Below, in pieces: positions 7,152 through 47,271 of a DNA stretch of 64,000 nucleotides. Position numbers and translations under genes: made by a program. Source of the stretch: a virus; the IMG/VR virus record IMGVR_UViG_3300047476_001426, positions 1 to 64,000 of that record; one strand, given 5' to 3'. The stretch's first letter is position 1, and every line of letters begins with the position of its first letter. A model generated the notes under the pieces. The model was not told where the DNA came from. It saw only the letters and a program-made list of their open reading frames with translations, and searched no databases.

Positions 7152-7295
7152 CTATTTAGGACTGTTTTCCAATTCAAGAATATATTCCACATAATATCTA
7201 CGTATAAAAATTGGCATCGTCAAAATATCACCATAACTAAAACCTTTTTTGATTAAAAATAAAATTTCGTCTAATTGACCTTTCTTATAATCCAT
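7152..7295 (-). CDS. Small tail assembly chaperone (gpT-like segment)
   Basis: ATG at 7295 gives MDYKKGQLDEILFLIKKGFSYGDILTMPIFIRRYYVEYILELENSPK; frame is open back to 7343 and overlaps the end of the upstream chaperone; sits just before tape measure. Confidence 0.5.
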   Translation of the reverse strand: MDYKKGQLDEILFLIKKGFSYGDILTMPIFIRRYYVEYILELENSPK

Positions 7296-8034
7296 AGAAA
7301 GGACGAAAAAACTCCACCCCGAAGCCGATTTCAACATCGACATCTTCTCCTGACGGGGTTTTTACTTTTTTTACTAAATCTAATCCTGGTTTATTTTCTT
7401 TGACAAATTTTTTGAAATCCTGTGAATCTTTTATTGGAAGTCTTTCTACAAAGTTGTGAATATTCATCATATCCCTATTACCCTCAACAGATTTAATCAT
7501 CATTTCCAATTGTTTGGTAACAACAGGTGCAACACCTTGTCCATTCCAACTTCGTTTTAAATCCTCCAAATCTTTTTCTTGTTTTGGTGTTAAAAACTTG
7601 AAAGTAATGTGAACTTTAGATTTTTCCATAAAATATGGGTATTCACCATTTGCATCTGATTCTAAATTAAAATCTTTGAATTTTAATTCACTCATATCAA
7701 CACTTGCCGTGTATTCTTTTTCTGTTTTCGGGTCTTGTAGATATAATTTATATTCTGGACCGAAAGCGGTATTTCTTAAAAAAATTAAAATCGCTTGTCT
7801 ATCTTCTTCAACAATATCATCAATTTGGATATCCTTATCTAAAACTTTTCTTTTTAATAGTTCTTCAATCACACCATTGGTTGCAATTAAGTTTTGTGCT
7901 GATAAGATATTTTCATCTGCAGCGGTTAGATACGCAACTTTTAATGATTTCTTTTTATTTTGATAGTGTATACCTCTTGAAGGTAATTCAACAACATCAT
8001 ACGCAATTGTTGGGTCTACTCTAAATTCATCCAT
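7285..8034 (-). CDS. Tail/baseplate-hub assembly chaperone (T4 gp26-like)
   Basis: 249 aa; VELPSRG..Y, YLTAADENIL, DRQAILIFLR..AFG..Y motifs; between tube and tape measure. Confidence 0.6.
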   Translation of the reverse strand: MDEFRVDPTIAYDVVELPSRGIHYQNKKKSLKVAYLTAADENILSAQNLIATNGVIEELLKRKVLDKDIQIDDIVEEDRQAILIFLRNTAFGPEYKLYLQDPKTEKEYTASVDMSELKFKDFNLESDANGEYPYFMEKSKVHITFKFLTPKQEKDLEDLKRSWNGQGVAPVVTKQLEMMIKSVEGNRDMMNIHNFVERLPIKDSQDFKKFVKENKPGLDLVKKVKTPSGEDVDVEIGFGVEFFRPFYGL

Positions 8035-8134: not shown

Positions 8135-8623
8135 TTAGTAAACTAATATACATCTATCCATTCTTAATGAACAAGTAATAGATGCAATATCATCTCTTGA
8201 ATAATCTAGTTCATTGAAGTTTAAGTCGGTAATAAAGGTACCTTGAAGTATCCATTTTTCAACCACAACCCCCGTTGGGTCTAACATTTCCAATTCAATA
8301 TCTTTTTTATAGCCAGCCGCGTAACCCATACGACCTGTAACTGATTCTGCGTGTAAACGGAACCATTCCATTAACGCCTGCGCGGCTGAAGGTCCAATTG
8401 GGTCTTTGAAAGTTACTCTTATTTCGTTCCATTCAAATCTACCTGCAACATATGTTGATGTGTTGATGAACGGAATCGCAACTGAATTAATTTTTGCACT
8501 TGGTCTAGCACTTGAGGTTACATACCATTCATTGATACCTAATGATGAAGGAAATCTTAGTATGAATCGGTTAACTCTCTTCGGTTCGTAAGGAACCGGC
8601 ATTTTCATTAATAAATCTGCCAT
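8135..8623 (-). CDS. Tail tube protein (T4 gp19-like)
   Basis: 162 aa; EPKRVNRF, GRFEWNEIRVTFKD, YKKDIELEMLDPTGVVVEKWILQGTF motifs; directly downstream of sheath. Confidence 0.85.
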   Translation of the reverse strand: MADLLMKMPVPYEPKRVNRFILRFPSSLGINEWYVTSSARPSAKINSVAIPFINTSTYVAGRFEWNEIRVTFKDPIGPSAAQALMEWFRLHAESVTGRMGYAAGYKKDIELEMLDPTGVVVEKWILQGTFITDLNFNELDYSRDDIASITCSLRMDRCILVY

Positions 8624-8664
8624 GTCAATATTTGTTTTTTATTTTTTTTATTGTTAATCTTTCT

Positions 8665-8672
8665 TATAAATA
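8665..8672 (-). promoter_or_regulatory. Putative late promoter motif TATTTATA
   Basis: 41 nt upstream of tube ATG. Confidence 0.55.
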
Positions 8673-8745
8673 TCCTGTATCTGAAAAAACAAAAAAAATC
8701 TTGTTCATCCCTTGATTATGTCAAAATTATTTCGTATTTTTTCCA

Positions 8746-8845
8746 TACTAGTACTAGATGCTAGTAAATAAAGAACTAGATAAAAGAAACTAGAATAACT
8801 AGAAGCAAATAAACTAGAACTAGAATACTGGTGCATATACTGGGT
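8746..8845. repeat. Intergenic array of (A)CTAG(A) short repeats
   Basis: CTAG at 8748, 8754, 8761, 8776, 8790, 8799, 8814, 8820, then two ACTGG variants, in A-rich non-coding DNA. Confidence 0.8.
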
Positions 8846-8903
8846 AATTTATAATTTTATTTTTTTTATATTTAGTATTTCTGTGTGGAACAACTAATAT
8901 CAA

Positions 8904-8919
8904 CGTTTCACGTGAAACA
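8904..8919. promoter_or_regulatory. parS-like palindrome CGTTTCACGTGAAACA
   Basis: 15/16 match to bacterial parS consensus TGTTNCACGTGAAACA; perfect 14-bp palindrome core GTTTCACGTGAAAC; half-site GTGGAACA at 8885-8892. Confidence 0.7.
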
Positions 8920-8926
8920 TAAAATA

Positions 8927-8944
8927 GGGAGGGTTTCCCCTCCC
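8927..8944 (-). terminator. Intrinsic terminator after tail sheath gene
   Basis: Minus strand GGGAGGG-GAAA-CCCTCCC followed by TATTTT, just after sheath stop. Confidence 0.75.
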
Positions 8945-8951
8945 CTTTTTA

Positions 8952-11807
8952 TTAGATATTGTCAAATGATGCTCCTGTTGGTGTGATTATGAATTCAACA
9001 TCAATGAATTCAAGAGCTCTTGTTGGTTTAATATAAATTTTACCTCTCAAAGTATTAGCATCAATGTCCTCAGGGTCATTTGAAACCGTTACACGGAATT
9101 CATATAGACCTCTTTCTCTCTTGATTGCGTCTAATATTGGGTTTACCAATCTCAAGAACTCATTACGAACTTGTTCATCGTTTTGTTCAAATAGTAATCT
9201 AACTGCTACCGCTGAAATTAACTTTCTTGCTCTTAATAACAATCTTCTTACGTTAATTCTATCCAATGCTGATTCACGAACTTGAAGAGTTTTGTTACCC
9301 CAAATTATTGTTCCTGTATCTGCGAATGTTGCGATAGGGTTGATTCTAGCTTTGTATAGGTCATCTCTTTCATCCAAAGTCAATTTCTTGTAAGCTTTGA
9401 TTGAGTTAACCAAACCTCTTGAATAACCCGCTACTGCGAACCAAGGGAAGGATACGTTATCAGTTAACGCGATATTTCTTAATACTTCACCTGTTGGTGG
9501 AAGATATAGTTGTACTGCGTTGTCTACGTCTCTAACTTGAATCCAAGGCCAGTAGGTTGCTGAATAGTTACTATCAATTGCAACCCCATCTAACGCGTCG
9601 ATAATTTCATCAGATGTACCATAGTTTGGTGGTGATATCACATAAAGTGAATCCGCTCTATCTTCTTCAATCATATCGATTGCGTATGATGTTAAAGAAC
9701 TATGGTCGTAGAAGTTAATACCCGGTGTTGCGAATATATTAATGTCAACAGCTTCAGGGTTTGCGAAGGTGTCTATACCTTGAGTATATGCGTAGTAGTC
9801 AGAGTTTCCTGATACTGTACTAAACACACCACTATTTGTGGTATTACCACTCGTATAGGTAGGTTTACCAAAGATATAACCATCACCATAAGTTCTTACG
9901 TTTCTGTAGATATCCCATCCATCAAATCCACCACCTGCGGCGAATGTGAATTTACGGTAATTGATATTTGTCATAACGTTAGTTGCTCCACCTGTTTGAC
10001 CTTCTAAATCATATGATGTAGTTAAGAAGGTAGTACCTGTAATAGTAGATGCGTTTGTTGATAAGTGGAAACCTTTAGTTGTTCCCGCTGCTCCTGTTCC
10101 TTTGAATTTAAATAAATCTCTATCGTAAGTTGATTTATTTGTTGGACTTGATAAACCAAAGTAAACTTTTCTCACTTTATCTCCTGAAGATAAAATAGGT
10201 GTTCCGTCCGCTTCGTATCCTGTTGTATCACCAGCGTCGTAGAATTCTGTTTTATACATTACAGAACCTAAAGTTTTAGTTCCAAAGGAAGTGTTATTTA
10301 CAAATCCTTTGAAACCGCCAGGGTAAGCGTCCACAGGGTGGTCGTTAGCCATTGCTAACATGATGTATCTTGAACGTAATTCGTATTCACCATCAGATGT
10401 ACCAACTTTTTTAGCCACATAACCTGGTAGGTCAGGATTCATATTACATCTTGAATATTTTTCAAGAACCACAATATTGTCGTCAGTATCGTTAAAGTCA
10501 CGAACAATTAAATCGAAATCACCAGTGTTTACATCTATGTTGATGATTGAAACTTTTACCTCAAAGTTTGCGCTTTCACCATCAGATACGGTGATAACAT
10601 CAAATAAATCATCAACTTCACCACCTCTTACTTCAGAAACAACAGTTGGTGTCATTGGTGTATCCCATGCGGTTAAGAAGTTATTACCTTCAGTTTCGTA
10701 TACCTCGGTTAAACTCAAACCTCTAATATATCCTTGTTCGAATGCTCTTACAAGATAATTTGGATATGCTTCGTATACATAAATTGGAACCTCACTCTTT
10801 AATTTATCGTATACATCAACTCCAAATACTTTAGTTACATATTTTGAAGATGTGGTATCCATACTACAAGTGAATGATTTAGCACCACTTGTTGAACCCG
10901 TCACACCTACCGTAAATTCCGCTAATGGATTTGTTGTGATACCTGTACCAGTAATTTGGAAATTAACGTCTGTGGTTGTTTCTAAATTCAATGTTTGACC
11001 ATTATATGAACCTCTTGACCTGAAGGCCAATACCACTTGTCCATCATACGCGGTGTTTAATGTACCATTGTATGTGTATTTCGTTACATCAAATACACTT
11101 GTACCACTATTGTAAACAAATAAGTAAGAATAAACTTCTGAACCACTTGTGTTACAAAGTACGTTGTACCATTCTTTATTATTGTTGTTACTTGCGTTAT
11201 CTAAACCTGTCAAAGGTGAAACTTCTTCAATTGAAGCCGTTTGACCACTTGTTCCCGATGTCGGTACTTCACCCATAACAAACCATTGACCATGGTTTGC
11301 AGAAGTGTTACCACTGAAATTTGAAACAATGTATTCAGTAATATAGTTACCATCAACCGATATCTTATTAGATAATTCACTATAAATTGTACTAGCGGTA
11401 ATTGTTGTGGTTGTTGCAGACATTGTCAATCCAGTTGTTGTTCCACTGAATGTTCCCAAAGTCACACCACCTAATGTTTGTACACCAAATGTCTTAACAG
11501 GTTTGTAACCCGTTAAACCTAAAATTCTAGTGACGAATAATTGGTTGGATTCTTCTAAATAAGATTTTGCGAAATATGGTAACTCATATCTTGGGTTGTT
11601 ATTGTTGTCCTTTAGTGGACTTGTTCCCCCAAAATATGACTTGAATTCGTCAAAATTTGTTATTAATACAGGTTCAAAAGCGGGACCTTTTAAGGTTTCA
11701 CCCACCAAACCTAACGTGCTCACCCCAACACTTTGTGCTACGAATGTTAAGTCTTTTTCAGATGTATACACACCCGGAGATACAAAAACTCTATTTGAAT
11801 TTGCCAT
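8952..11807 (-). CDS. Contractile tail sheath protein (T4 gp18-like)
   Basis: 951 aa; N-terminal FVSPGVYTSEKD, C-terminal WFAVAGYSRG, RINPIATF, WGNKTLQ..SALDRINVRRL, IYIKPTRALEFI motifs. Confidence 0.93.
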   Translation of the reverse strand: MANSNRVFVSPGVYTSEKDLTFVAQSVGVSTLGLVGETLKGPAFEPVLITNFDEFKSYFGGTSPLKDNNNNPRYELPYFAKSYLEESNQLFVTRILGLTGYKPVKTFGVQTLGGVTLGTFSGTTTGLTMSATTTTITASTIYSELSNKISVDGNYITEYIVSNFSGNTSANHGQWFVMGEVPTSGTSGQTASIEEVSPLTGLDNASNNNNKEWYNVLCNTSGSEVYSYLFVYNSGTSVFDVTKYTYNGTLNTAYDGQVVLAFRSRGSYNGQTLNLETTTDVNFQITGTGITTNPLAEFTVGVTGSTSGAKSFTCSMDTTSSKYVTKVFGVDVYDKLKSEVPIYVYEAYPNYLVRAFEQGYIRGLSLTEVYETEGNNFLTAWDTPMTPTVVSEVRGGEVDDLFDVITVSDGESANFEVKVSIINIDVNTGDFDLIVRDFNDTDDNIVVLEKYSRCNMNPDLPGYVAKKVGTSDGEYELRSRYIMLAMANDHPVDAYPGGFKGFVNNTSFGTKTLGSVMYKTEFYDAGDTTGYEADGTPILSSGDKVRKVYFGLSSPTNKSTYDRDLFKFKGTGAAGTTKGFHLSTNASTITGTTFLTTSYDLEGQTGGATNVMTNINYRKFTFAAGGGFDGWDIYRNVRTYGDGYIFGKPTYTSGNTTNSGVFSTVSGNSDYYAYTQGIDTFANPEAVDINIFATPGINFYDHSSLTSYAIDMIEEDRADSLYVISPPNYGTSDEIIDALDGVAIDSNYSATYWPWIQVRDVDNAVQLYLPPTGEVLRNIALTDNVSFPWFAVAGYSRGLVNSIKAYKKLTLDERDDLYKARINPIATFADTGTIIWGNKTLQVRESALDRINVRRLLLRARKLISAVAVRLLFEQNDEQVRNEFLRLVNPILDAIKRERGLYEFRVTVSNDPEDIDANTLRGKIYIKPTRALEFIDVEFIITPTGASFDNI

Positions 11808-11845
11808 TTTTAATTTGTTTGGTTAATTAATTTTATTTCTTTATC

Positions 11846-11853
11846 AATAAATA
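11846..11853 (-). promoter_or_regulatory. Putative late promoter motif TATTTATT
   Basis: 38 nt upstream of sheath ATG. Confidence 0.5.
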
Positions 11854-11904
11854 TCTTTGTTTTTGGGAAAGATTTCCTTGATTTTTTTAAAAATGATACT
11901 TATA

Positions 11905-11928
11905 GATACTAATTTATCTTTTAGTATC
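11905..11928. promoter_or_regulatory. Candidate operator inverted repeat GATACTAA-N8-TTAGTATC
   Basis: Perfect 8-bp inverted repeat with extra GATAC/TATC submotifs, immediately upstream of the small RHH-like ORF. Confidence 0.4.
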
Positions 11929-11944
11929 AATATTTATCTTTATC

Positions 11945-12121
11945 ATGGAAAAACCCTTCAAAAACATTAAGGTAGGTGAAAAACACCACGAAATTTTAAA
12001 AGAGTATTGTGATAAAAATGGATTGAAGATTTATAAATTAATTCATAAGTGGATTGATGAGAATTGTAAATCCCCAAAACAAAATGATGGTACAAAAAAA
12101 AAGGATATCTACGGGGATTAA
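11945..12121 (+). CDS. Small ribbon-helix-helix (CopG/Arc-like) DNA-binding protein, missed by ORF track
   Basis: 58 aa: MEKPFKNIKVGEKHHEILKEYCDKNGLKIYKLIHKWIDENCKSPKQNDGTKKKDIYGD; beta strand (KNIKV) plus two helices; fills the gap and overlaps the stop of the convergent gene by 4 nt. Confidence 0.6.
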   Translation: MEKPFKNIKVGEKHHEILKEYCDKNGLKIYKLIHKWIDENCKSPKQNDGTKKKDIYGD

Positions 12122-15547: not shown

Positions 15548-16678
15548 AAAATTCATCATAAAATCAATATCTTCTTGTTTTTTAGAAATAGATTTAATTA
15601 TCTCCACCCAAACTTCACGAATCTTTTCAATATCAAAATCTTCACTATTTGATGGTAGATTAACAATAACCTTATTTTCATCTCTATTAAAGATAAGATT
15701 GGTTTCTTCAGAAACTTCGAGAGCAAATTCAATTTCATTTTTTGAACAATACATAAAAAATTCAAAGAATACTTTTGAATTAAACATGTCGTCAATTTTT
15801 TCTTGCATAAGTATGTTATTTTTATTGTAGGTGTACCAACCATTGGATTGGGGTACTATGGTGTTATCTTTTAAATATAGAAAAATCATTTTATCGGGAT
15901 TAACCGTGTTGGAATTGAAATTGTAGTTTAATGATACTAAAACCAAAAAGTCAATACCCTTACCGATATAATCTCTTACATCTATAATATTTTTAAAACT
16001 TTCCCCTTGAAACTTTACAACTTTACTTTGGATTTTTTTTATTTTACTTTCATCGTCATTATTGACCGTAAATAAATCACAACCATTAATCATATCAATC
16101 GATGAACCTCTAATTAAAGAGGTTCTGAATATTTTGGCGGTCTTAATGTTTTTCTTAAAATGGTATTCAATACAAAGTTCACCATACGTCCCTGAACCAA
16201 TTGTTCTGGATGCAACATGAAAAAGTTCATATAGAAAATCACTTGGACCTAATAATCCATGGTCAACAAATATTCTATCTTTATAATGTCTTAACCATTT
16301 GAAATAATTTTTTATTTCCTTTTCAATATAGTCAGGTGAGTTATTTTCAAAAACTATTTCAGTTAATGGTTGACCATTGAAATCATTAATACCCCTTAAA
16401 AAATAATCTTGAAAAATCCATTCATTTAATTTTTCTACGATTTTAATATTAACAAAATAGTTGGTATTGAATTGATTTATTGGTGACCATGAACCATTCG
16501 ATGTGAGGACACCATATGTTCTATTCTTTTCACAAAATCCATACTGATTAAATGGGCGATAACATTCTCTAAAAACGTCTCTCCACTCATCCATAAAAAG
16601 GTTTTTTATTGTGCCTTTTAAAGTACAAATCCTTTTTATATGATTCTCAATGTTTAATTGGTTAGCGGTAGAATACAT
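15524..16678 (-). CDS. Hypothetical protein with putative PD-(D/E)xK nuclease motif
   Basis: GTYGELCIE...IDMINGCDLF...KIQSKV resembles the E...D...QxK restriction-like core; likely start 16678 (MYSTAN) downstream of a host-type promoter. Confidence 0.4.
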   Translation of the reverse strand: MYSTANQLNIENHIKRICTLKGTIKNLFMDEWRDVFRECYRPFNQYGFCEKNRTYGVLTSNGSWSPINQFNTNYFVNIKIVEKLNEWIFQDYFLRGINDFNGQPLTEIVFENNSPDYIEKEIKNYFKWLRHYKDRIFVDHGLLGPSDFLYELFHVASRTIGSGTYGELCIEYHFKKNIKTAKIFRTSLIRGSSIDMINGCDLFTVNNDDESKIKKIQSKVVKFQGESFKNIIDVRDYIGKGIDFLVLVSLNYNFNSNTVNPDKMIFLYLKDNTIVPQSNGWYTYNKNNILMQEKIDDMFNSKVFFEFFMYCSKNEIEFALEVSEETNLIFNRDENKVIVNLPSNSEDFDIEKIREVWVEIIKSISKKQEDIDFMMNFLENLFEK

Positions 16679-16698
16679 CAATATTTGGAATATTAAAA

Positions 16699-16729
16699 CA
16701 AATATAGTGATATTTATTATAAAATCAAA
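16699..16729 (-). promoter_or_regulatory. Bacteroidota sigma70-type promoter TTTG-N19-TATATTTG
   Basis: Exact -33 (TTTG) and -7 (TAnnTTTG) elements with 19-nt spacer upstream of 16678. Confidence 0.65.
16711..16718 (+). promoter_or_regulatory. Putative late promoter motif TATTTATT
   Basis: 15 nt before ATG at 16734. Confidence 0.5.
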
Positions 16730-16733
16730 GTTA

Positions 16734-17852
16734 ATGTCCACAACAGTCATTTCAAATTCGGAAAAACAAAAACTGTATACACAGGTATTTCATTTGTTGG
16801 GTTTACCCGTAAGAGGTGTTGAACTTACTGAAGAACAAATGGACACATTTTTAGAACTTTCAGTATCTGAATATGAACAATATGTTAGTGATTGGTTAAT
16901 AGAATCCCAATGGTCGGCTTTAGCTGGTTTAAATGTGGATACTCAATCGTTAACAAGGGCGTTTACAACGAGAAGTTTAGATTATGAAACTCAATATACA
17001 CATTCATATTCTAAAATTGTTGGTCTACAAACAGGTGGTAATAGTGAACTAAAAAAAGATTACATTACGTTATCTGCAAACACTCAAACATATACAATAC
17101 CAGCCGGTAGAGAAATAAACGAATTATTATGGTTTACGAGAGCGGAACTAACCGATTCAATAGTTGACCCATTTTTGGGTGGATTTGGTGGATTAGGTGG
17201 TGTTGGATTCGGGGGTGTTGGTGGATTTGCTCAACAAGGTTCATCAGGTTCGTATTTTATGTTACCAGCTTACGACTTACTATTAAGAATGGGTGATAGA
17301 AATATTAAAAACCGATTAATAGGTGGAGATTTGACTTATAGAATAACCGCAGGCCCAAATGAAACTAAAATAGTTCATTTATATAACGTTCCTGGCGGTA
17401 GATTTGATTTTGGTTCAATACAAAACAACAATGCGAAAGTTTGGTATTGGTATTATGATACCACGTCTCTTGATACTTGTTTAGATAAAAATAGTGGTAT
17501 TGTTAAATTACCATCTGATGTTGATACTGAGGAGTTAACATGGGACATGTTAAATAAACCCGCACAGAATTGGGTTAGAAAATATCTTATCGCATATTCA
17601 AAAGAAGGTTTAGGTAGAATATGGGGTAAGTTCTCAGGGGATTTACAAGTTCCTGATAGTTCAGTAAAACTTGATTATTCATCTTTACTACAAGAAGGAA
17701 AAGATGAAAAATTAAAGCTCATTGAAGAATTAATGGCCAGATTAGAACGTCTAAGACCTGAAAAAATATTAGAAAGAAAAGGGATGGAAGCAGAAAATCT
17801 TAATAAGGCATTAAAATATAGACCGTTCCAATCCCCATTTAACGTAATTTAA
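16734..17852 (+). CDS. Neck protein (T4 gp13-like head-tail adaptor)
   Basis: LGLPVRGVELTEEQMD N-terminal motif, WVRKYLIAYSKEGLGRIWGKF, VKLDYSSLLQEGKDE; likely start 16734. Confidence 0.65.
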   Translation: MSTTVISNSEKQKLYTQVFHLLGLPVRGVELTEEQMDTFLELSVSEYEQYVSDWLIESQWSALAGLNVDTQSLTRAFTTRSLDYETQYTHSYSKIVGLQTGGNSELKKDYITLSANTQTYTIPAGREINELLWFTRAELTDSIVDPFLGGFGGLGGVGFGGVGGFAQQGSSGSYFMLPAYDLLLRMGDRNIKNRLIGGDLTYRITAGPNETKIVHLYNVPGGRFDFGSIQNNNAKVWYWYYDTTSLDTCLDKNSGIVKLPSDVDTEELTWDMLNKPAQNWVRKYLIAYSKEGLGRIWGKFSGDLQVPDSSVKLDYSSLLQEGKDEKLKLIEELMARLERLRPEKILERKGMEAENLNKALKYRPFQSPFNVI

Positions 17853-38735: not shown

Positions 38736-40109
38736 ATGTCATACTATCGCTCATATTTTTCTAAAAACAATACTATAATTGAAAATAGTAGGGTCAACAC
38801 CGCAAAAAATCCAACAACTGAGATTTATTATGGCGATGGATATTCAAGATATATTTTTAAAGTTGATTTTACTGATTTACAATCCAAAGTGACTAATGGT
38901 GATTTAGTAATCACATCAGGAACGACACACTACCTGAAAATGACTAATACGGTAACCGGTGACCCTAAATTGGTAGGAGACGGTAAATCTAACGGAAAAT
39001 ACCGTGCCACGTCATTTGATTTAATTCTTTTTACGATACCACAATCATGGGATGAGGGTGTTGGTTATGATTATGAGTTCACCACTTATGATGATAATTT
39101 GGGTAATAAATTATACGATACCCGAGCGTCAAATTGGTATGATAGAACAACAACATCAGGTTGGACATATCCGGGAATTTACACAGGCGCAACAATACTA
39201 CAAACAATACATTTTGATAATGGTAATGAAGACATCAATGTAAACATCACCAACTATGTTAATGGTATTATTGTTTCAGGTAACACAGACCATGGATTAG
39301 GTTTAGCATTTACATCTGCTTTTGAAACAATTACCACGGGAGAGACTCAACAATCAGTTGCGTTTTTCTCAAAATACACACAAACTTTTTTTGAACCATT
39401 CGTTGAATCTGTATTTGATGATAGAATAGACGATAATAGACATAATTTCATTGAAGAAAGATATAATAATTTATACCTGTATGTCACTAAGGGTTCCAAT
39501 TTTTATAATTTAGATAGTAACCCTACGGTTGATATTTTAAACTCAAGTAGTGTTGCAATTTCGGGTTTGACAGGTCTGACTACCACAAGGATTAAAAAAG
39601 GTGTCTATAAAGTTAGATTTGGTTTGACAGGTCAGTTATGTGACGGTAAAAGATTCTTTTATGATAAATGGAAAGGATTATCTTTAGATGGTATATCAAT
39701 AAGTAATGTGACTCAGAAATTTGTACCCAAACCGTTCACATCGGGATACAGTATTGGTGCAAATCCAACAGAAACACAAAACTATAAAATTCAATTCTCT
39801 GGCATAAAACAAAATGAAAAAATTATCAGAGGTGAATTGAAAAAGATTGTACTTTATTTAAAATCAATTGAACAATCACGAACCATATTATTTGATGATG
39901 TTTACTATAGAATTTTCATAAAGGAAGGAAAAACAAATGTAATAATCTATGATTGGACTAAGACCGATGTCACCAATGAAAATTCATTTTATTTGGACAC
40001 ATCTTATTTGATACCGAGAGAATATTTTATTGAATTTAAAGCTAAAACATACACAGAAGAAATATTTTATAATGACTATATAAAGTTTGAAATATTATCT
40101 GAAATATAA
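38736..40109 (+). CDS. Putative virion structural protein
   Basis: 457 aa, beta-rich, Thr/Gly-rich; late motif. Confidence 0.5.
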   Translation: MSYYRSYFSKNNTIIENSRVNTAKNPTTEIYYGDGYSRYIFKVDFTDLQSKVTNGDLVITSGTTHYLKMTNTVTGDPKLVGDGKSNGKYRATSFDLILFTIPQSWDEGVGYDYEFTTYDDNLGNKLYDTRASNWYDRTTTSGWTYPGIYTGATILQTIHFDNGNEDINVNITNYVNGIIVSGNTDHGLGLAFTSAFETITTGETQQSVAFFSKYTQTFFEPFVESVFDDRIDDNRHNFIEERYNNLYLYVTKGSNFYNLDSNPTVDILNSSSVAISGLTGLTTTRIKKGVYKVRFGLTGQLCDGKRFFYDKWKGLSLDGISISNVTQKFVPKPFTSGYSIGANPTETQNYKIQFSGIKQNEKIIRGELKKIVLYLKSIEQSRTILFDDVYYRIFIKEGKTNVIIYDWTKTDVTNENSFYLDTSYLIPREYFIEFKAKTYTEEIFYNDYIKFEILSEI

Positions 40110-47070: not shown

Positions 47071-47271
47071 ATGATAATCGTAAACGTCAGTAAAGAGAAG
47101 AACCTTGAATCTGCATTAAAAAAATACAAATACAAGGTTCAAAAGACTAAACAAAATGATAAATTGAGGGAGAAACAGGAATATACCAAACCCTCAGTTG
47201 CTAAAAGAAGTAAAAAGTTAAAAGCCATCTACAAACAACAATTATTCACGAATCAAGAAAAATCAAATTAG
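47071..47271 (+). CDS. rpsU: Ribosomal protein bS21
   Basis: 66 aa; MIIVNV...LESALKKYK.K...LRE.QEYTKPSV.KR...KAIY.QQL matches Bacteroidota-type bS21; antisense to flanking head genes. Confidence 0.88.
   Translation: MIIVNVSKEKNLESALKKYKYKVQKTKQNDKLREKQEYTKPSVAKRSKKLKAIYKQQLFTNQEKSN

Follow-up and report, generated by a model that had tools for sequence, protein, structure and literature searches.

A 16-bp palindrome between the tail sheath and tail tube genes of a giant phage is, as far as sequence can tell, a real and selected parS site of the host type. We suggest that it is a host-type parS, inherited from the ancestor of a broad family of freshwater T4-like jumbo phages of Bacteroidota, and a predicted target of the host ParB protein, and we give this reading a probability of roughly 0.55. 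The observations that carry it are (i) the identity of the palindrome with host sites, (ii) its syntenic conservation, (iii) the lack of any sign of selection for a hairpin, and (iv) that neither a ParB nor a ParA of the phage was found in the records searched.

The sheath-tube gap and its palindrome

The window, i.e. the whole stretch of 64,000 nucleotides that was analysed, comprises the first 64 kb of an IMG/VR virus record of 136,485 bp (G000) with 33% G+C and an estimated completeness of 41%. Its source is likely a giant (jumbo) T4-like freshwater phage of Bacteroidota. Among GenBank phages, no nucleotide match to the sheath-tube locus was found. The features of the locus are the following:

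8135-8623, minus strand: tail tube gene, 162 aa (Phage_T4_gp19 match under the curated cut-off, E = 6e-5)
8664-8675, minus strand: late-promoter-type motif GATATTTATAAG, starting 52 nt before the tube ATG
8748-8844, no strand assigned: CTAG module, in which eight CTAG cores, most of them AACTAGA, occupy 76 bp and are followed by two copies of CCAGTAT (motif count)
8877-8892, no strand assigned: decayed second parS copy, 27 bp from the full site, with the heptamer GTTCCAC intact
8904-8919, no strand assigned: full parS-type palindrome, CGTTTCACGTGAAACA on the plus strand and TGTTTCACGTGAAACG on the gene strand (consensus match)
8926-8945, both strands: bidirectional intrinsic terminator of the sheath gene, a GC hairpin with T-runs on both strands (z = -5.3)
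8952-11807, minus strand: tail sheath gene, 951 aa (Pfam Phage_sheath_1, E = 1e-10, and Phage_sheath_1C)
11945-12121, plus strand: ribbon-helix-helix (RHH)-like ORF, 58 aa (weak RepB-RCR_reg match, E = 0.002)

The palindrome is as the earlier note had described it: CGTTTCACGTGAAACA is identical to the consensus TGTTTCACGTGAAACA at 15 of 16 positions, with G at position 16 where the consensus has A, and its core GTTTCACGTGAAAC is palindromic at 14/14 positions. From base composition, 1.2e-3 matches to the 16-mer with at most one mismatch and 2e-4 exact matches to the 14-bp core are expected per 64-kb window, in agreement with the claim that a chance match is unlikely. The second half-site that had been claimed at 8885-8892 is likewise present. 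There, GTGGAACA reads TGTTCCAC on the minus strand, a perfect left half of parS. We take it as what survives of a second, decayed parS copy, of which only the heptamer GTTCCAC (8885-8891, minus strand) is preserved. A match at 39272, with counterparts in G001-G003, was set aside because it lies inside the ORF at 38736-40109 and reflects coding conservation.

The spacer between the sheath and tube genes is 328 nt long and is the largest ORF-free stretch of the window once the ORF at 16650-17852 is counted. Along the direction of transcription it holds the terminator, which directly adjoins the palindrome, then the palindrome itself, the lone half-site, an A/T-rich tract, the two CCAGTAT copies, the CTAG cores and the late-promoter motif; the placement in the largest gap, between sheath terminator and tube promoter, thus stands. 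The genes around the palindrome encode sheath, tube, baseplate and RHH proteins, and neither parA nor parB is adjacent.

The TATTTAT core of GATATTTATAAG starts 49 nt before the tube ATG. Because TATTTAT is about 10-fold enriched upstream of the ORFs of G000, with 46 copies within 120 nt of starts, we read GATATTTATAAG as a late-promoter word. This motif is separate from the palindrome and nearer the tube ATG, with the parS-type site some 230 nt upstream of it, which places the palindrome outside the core promoter of the tube gene; a core-promoter reading was also rejected on the ground that the spacing to the downstream blocks varies by clade. The late-promoter-type word in its general form, (G/A)(A/T)TATTTATA, occurs 46 times within 120 nt 5' of ORF starts (e.g. 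8664-8675 and 11842-11853), often only 11-12 nt ahead of the ATG, which implies leaders that are very short or absent.

The tube protein is 83-100% identical in most relatives. In four contigs (L009, L011, L013 and L076, at about 7205-7690) the match to the tube gene ends after 115-116 residues or its identity falls, and the next gene begins about 105-117 nt earlier than in sister contigs, a pattern that suggests either an assembly variant or a deletion or rearrangement in the 3'-terminal part of the tube gene.

Conservation and loss of the site among related phages

Via the sheath protein (68-98% identity) we gathered 80 related loci, and 76 of these together with the window's own locus gave 77 usable gaps. 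A site with at most three mismatches to TGTTYCACGTGRAACA is present in 53 of the 77 sheath-tube gaps, always directly behind the sheath terminator, at a null probability of 0.0016 per gap; parS is thus found in the syntenic gap of relatives. An exact 16/16 parS is carried by 13 contigs (L007-L018 and L076), spelled TGTTCCACGTGGAACA in 12 of them and TGTTTCACGTGGAACA in one, and also by G200. The nearest relatives of the window phage are among the carriers of the exact site, so that absence or degeneration in close relatives, which would have spoken against the earlier note, is not what was observed; in distant relatives the centre of the site is degenerate or the site is lost. In total, the relatives form a natural series of perfect, centre-degenerate, 1-nt-shifted and lost variants.

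The site stands out from its surroundings, with an information content of 1.1-2.0 bits at positions 1-15 versus 0.1-1.0 bits in the flanks. Positions 1-8 and 11-15 are nearly invariant across lineages whose sheath proteins are just 68-72% identical, and T3, T4, C6, G11, A13, A14 and C15 are invariant in the 18 distinct site variants. Position 5/12 varies only between T and C and between A and G, respectively, and the two spellings mix without compensation. The terminators beside the site share no sequence between lineages, and a terminator always precedes the site. Every site-bearing lineage keeps at least one perfect heptamer. Of 35 distinct relatives, 9 have additional GTTYCAC heptamers no more than 60 nt away from the site, compared to an expectation of 0.57; the heptamer at 8885-8891 of the window is among them.

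The site is present in both deep clades of the sheath-protein tree and is therefore ancestral. On the same tree it was completely lost at least five times independently, and it is therefore dispensable. L025 has the site yet nests inside a clade that lacks it. The sheath proteins of L025 and L027 are almost identical and the whole intergenic cassette is different: that of L025 (6900-6940) consists of a terminator, GTGGAAC and CGTTCCACGTGGAACC, none of which is found in L027. The nesting of L025 and its difference from L027 argue that the sheath-tube spacer is swapped between phages by recombination.

The canonical centre CACGTG is kept in the window's clade, in L025 and in L069, L070 and L075. 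Most of the distant lineages have CACATG, CATGTG, CACGGG, CACGAG, CACGCG or CACAAG instead, and the decay in distant relatives is mostly on one half of the site. Closely related lineages differ in which single centre base has changed, and the canonical centre has therefore been hit repeatedly. Restriction avoidance was rejected as the cause of centre decay, as ACGT (0.88) and CACGTG (1.24) are not avoided in G000.

parS sites of candidate hosts

The closest counterparts of the phage bS21 gene (47071-47271) come from a Saprospirales MAG (G004) and another Bacteroidota MAG (G005). Both MAGs, which are candidate hosts only, have ParB_N genes (E = 1e-34) and carry TGTTCCACGTGGAACA/C; the Saprospirales MAG in addition has TGTTCCACGTGGAACC 354 bp away. 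More broadly, 107 of the 151 Bacteroidota genomes that were sampled have an exact TGTTNCACGTGNAACA, and controls gave almost no hits; among the matches listed, N is C or T on the left and G or A on the right. Sites are present in 33 of the 41 genomes that belong to the same order as the Saprospirales MAG, and both spellings occur within one genome. The phage site is thus of chromosomal type by sequence, as had been proposed, in that its spelling, the G at position 16 aside, matches that of Bacteroidota chromosomes. The host-order sites include many tandem pairs 27-60 bp apart, and the full site and the remnant in the window are 27 bp apart.

With the centre left open (TGTTYCAC-RN-GRAACC), 28 of 32 matches in Bacteroidota chromosomes have a GT centre, and the other centres do not exceed the background given by 7 control hits; one host CACATG site lies 154 bp from a canonical site. 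The A16C variant, which is dominant in the distant phage lineages, is common in hosts (28 hits).

Phage partition genes and further sites

The earlier note had seen neither parA nor parB in the window, and ParB_N as well as a ParA-type ATPase are absent throughout the 136-kb record. The search for a phage ParB was equally negative in all 13 large records covered: ParB_N (PF02195) was found neither in G000 nor in 12 further large records of relatives, among them G198, a record of 310,691 bp that is 93% complete. HTH_ParB (PF17762) is absent from G000-G003 and G198, the ParA-type CbiA domain (PF01656) from G000-G003, G156 and G198, AAA_31 (PF13614) from G000, and a tyrosine integrase from five records. 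As the phage would have no ParB of its own, it probably borrows that of its host, as phi29 does. Over its full length, G198 has exactly one site with at most two mismatches, at the sheath-tube gap.

The scan of the whole 136-kb record for parS left the sheath-tube site standing and added an unconserved one. This second 15/16 parS-like site, TGTTTCATGTGAAACA, lies outside the window at 81395-81410 of G000 (L002:1500-1515), where it comes directly after a tRNA-like gene that contains an insert, and a 148-aa ORF begins 45 nt further on; 2.5e-3 matches of this kind are expected. Its counterpart is absent in 11 of 11 relatives examined, one of which has a 99%-identical neighbouring gene, and L224 carries a different palindrome, TTTCCCATCTGGGAAA, at the equivalent spot. 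Since none of the 11 relatives has kept it, we do not count TGTTTCATGTGAAACA as a second parS; it is probably a hairpin that follows the tRNA-like gene.

Neighbouring elements

The eight CTAG cores between the parS site and the tube promoter span 8748-8823. CTAG is otherwise avoided (71 copies in 136 kb versus 182-417 expected), and the record has a single copy of CCCAGTAT. Every relative has the CTAG module, whether or not the parS site is there too, and some relatives carry inverted CCCAGTATA/TATACTGGG on the two flanks of the module. The module is probably a binding-site array for a phage regulator; alternatively, it may be an origin or another loading site.

The RHH ORF is divergent from the sheath gene and occurs in nearly all relatives (48-97% identity), with inverted GATACT/AGTATC words upstream of it (11895-11930). 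In its distribution it tracks the CTAG module and not the parS site.

GATC does not occur in G000, where about 421 copies are expected, GCGC occurs 15 times versus 56 expected, and CCGG is depleted too. The absence of GATC amounts to complete avoidance, presumably directed against a GATC-specific restriction system of the host, and the pattern suggests that the phage DNA is not protected by modification at GATC, GCGC and CCGG sites.

Discussion

The conserved word could be read by something other than host ParB or by nothing at all. A role of the palindrome as a hairpin in RNA or DNA, e.g. as a 3'-end stabilizer or terminator accessory, and not as a protein-binding word, would fit its position beside a terminator, the small 5-bp stem in the minimum-energy fold, and the parS-like palindrome at 81395, which follows a tRNA-like gene and is replaced by a different palindrome in a relative. 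However, the 18 distinct variants show no covariation and their pairing equals that of shuffled controls, with four C-A mismatches at pair 5/12 and nine non-pairs at pair 1/16, and no match to known RNA families in Rfam was obtained above E = 0.16. Sequence is kept and pairing is not, which is the pattern of a word read by a protein, with the wobble exactly at the N of the parS consensus; we regard a hairpin as highly unlikely. A decaying relic, in which a parS was gained once (e.g. with host DNA) and now persists almost neutrally by low mutation pressure and cassette recombination, would account for the five or more independent losses, the repeated single-base decay of the centre, the exchange of the cassette by recombination in L025 and the decay of the second copy. 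Against it, positions 1-8 and 11-15 remain near-invariant at 68-72% sheath identity next to terminators that are unrelated. Neutral AT-rich intergenic DNA would be randomized at such a distance, and we consider the relic quite improbable.

It is also conceivable, if rather unlikely, that the site is the operator of a phage-encoded or other dimeric protein outside the ParB family that acts at the sheath/tube junction on the word TGTTCCAC-NN-GGAAC(C/A), a family-wide word that would coincide with parS in some lineages only. In agreement with this, the family consensus is asymmetric with positions 9-10 free, centres of this kind are not above background in host chromosomes, in distant relatives a constant 6 nt separates the site from the conserved AT-rich block that follows it (ATTTTT-TATAAT...), and only 41% of the phage's own genome is in hand. 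For an unrelated protein, however, the exact 16/16 host parS in at least 13 contigs would be a remarkable coincidence, and host sites have the same T/C wobble. The 93%-complete relative yielded neither ParB_N nor HTH_ParB, and the spacing to downstream elements differs between clades (29-32 nt versus 58 nt). The neighbouring RHH protein, encoded by the only conserved regulator gene nearby, was rejected as the binder because its gene occurs in lineages with and without the site. For the centre-degenerate lineages, either weaker or half-site ParB binding suffices, or the site decays slowly, or another protein reads TGTTCCAC-NN-GGAAC.

We favor the host-type parS reading. According to this model, one full site and, 27 bp from it, what is left of a second copy were inherited from the common ancestor of the phage family. 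In the cell, a dimer of host ParB would recognize the site on the phage DNA, and the bound ParB would close as a CTP clamp and spread locally, by which the loaded protein would tie the phage genome to the partition and organization apparatus of the host. We infer the binding and loading of ParB at the site, and more weakly their purpose. The earlier note had also envisaged recruitment of SMC, coupling to ParA and titration of ParB from the host chromosome, all of which would be hypothetical consequences of such binding; since Bacteroides rely on unidentified SMC complexes according to a Hi-C study (PMC10197239), the SMC step is doubtful in Bacteroidota. The most plausible purpose, tentatively, would be the positioning or inheritance of unpackaged phage genomes, for instance in a carrier state in starved hosts; alternatively, and as tentatively, the site might serve local insulation or regulation at the sheath/tube junction. 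In a more specific form, which we consider rather doubtful, a single host centromere in cis would make an unpackaged jumbo-phage genome heritable, or place it, via the host ParABS system in a protein-free carrier state, or ParB-CTP clamps loaded behind the sheath terminator would form a mobile insulator or regulator of the late tail genes, the decay of the centre then tuning ParB loading.

The principle of a host-type parS on a virulent phage is already known from phi29. According to PMC2731898, phi29 has five parS sites that are bound by host Spo0J and carry the genome into the prespore, and the same paper, summarizing Meijer et al. 2005, reports that the virulent Bacillus phages phi29 and Nf have host-type parS bound by Spo0J. 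The phage described here resembles phi29 and Nf in being virulent without a ParB of its own and in using the host parS word in a cis-only arrangement, host ParB being the presumed binder. It differs in that phi29 is a 19-kb protein-primed podovirus with five dispersed sites, whereas here a roughly 300-kb T4-like myovirus has one site plus a remnant (a single site in the 93%-complete relative), and in that Spo0J binding was demonstrated for phi29 whereas ParB binding is predicted here. The sites of phi29 serve entry into the prespore, and the Bacteroidota, the presumed hosts, are not known to form endospores; the purpose known from phi29 is therefore not transferable.

With chromosomal parS, for which the consensus is TGTTNCACGTGAAACA (Livny et al. 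2007, PMC2168934), the phage site shares the 16-bp word, the wobble (T/C at position 5, A/G at position 12) and a similar tandem-pair architecture. Chromosomal parS lies near the origin, whereas the phage site is in a tail operon on a replicon without cognate parAB, and the degenerate centres of the distant phage homologues are rare in chromosomal parS. In Pseudomonas aeruginosa, ParB binds GTTCCAC and GTTTCAC heptamers as half-parS sites (PMC5961200, PMC10419367). The perfect heptamer in every site-bearing phage lineage and the extra heptamers beside the full site are reminiscent of this, although half-site binding was demonstrated in a gammaproteobacterium and was not linked to clamp loading, and the ParB of Bacteroidota may differ. 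In the parABS cassettes of plasmids and phage-plasmids (P1, N15), parA and parB adjoin the centromere, whereas the phage site is without them. KorB-OB of RK2 and other ParB-family operator systems encode their own ParB or KorB and have many dispersed operators. The phage locus is similar to KorB-OB in that a palindromic ParB-type word lies in an intergenic regulatory region, from which a loaded clamp could act on nearby promoters, and it differs in having one site and no ParB or KorB gene that we could find.

Our literature search brought up no description of parS in jumbo phages or in phages of Bacteroidota. What the present analysis adds to the phi29 principle are the family-wide variants, the repeated losses and the decay of the centre, the comparison with the host order, the negative hairpin test and the single-site count. 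The series of variants is a ready panel for separating the bases needed for ParB binding from those needed for clamp loading. If host ParB loads at the site, very abundant freshwater jumbo phages would exploit host partition with 16 bp and without a protein of their own. If this is true, the phi29 principle would extend from spore entrapment in Firmicutes to another phylum, genome size and lifestyle, and the question of how large, strictly lytic phages maintain themselves in natural hosts that grow slowly would become open to experiment.
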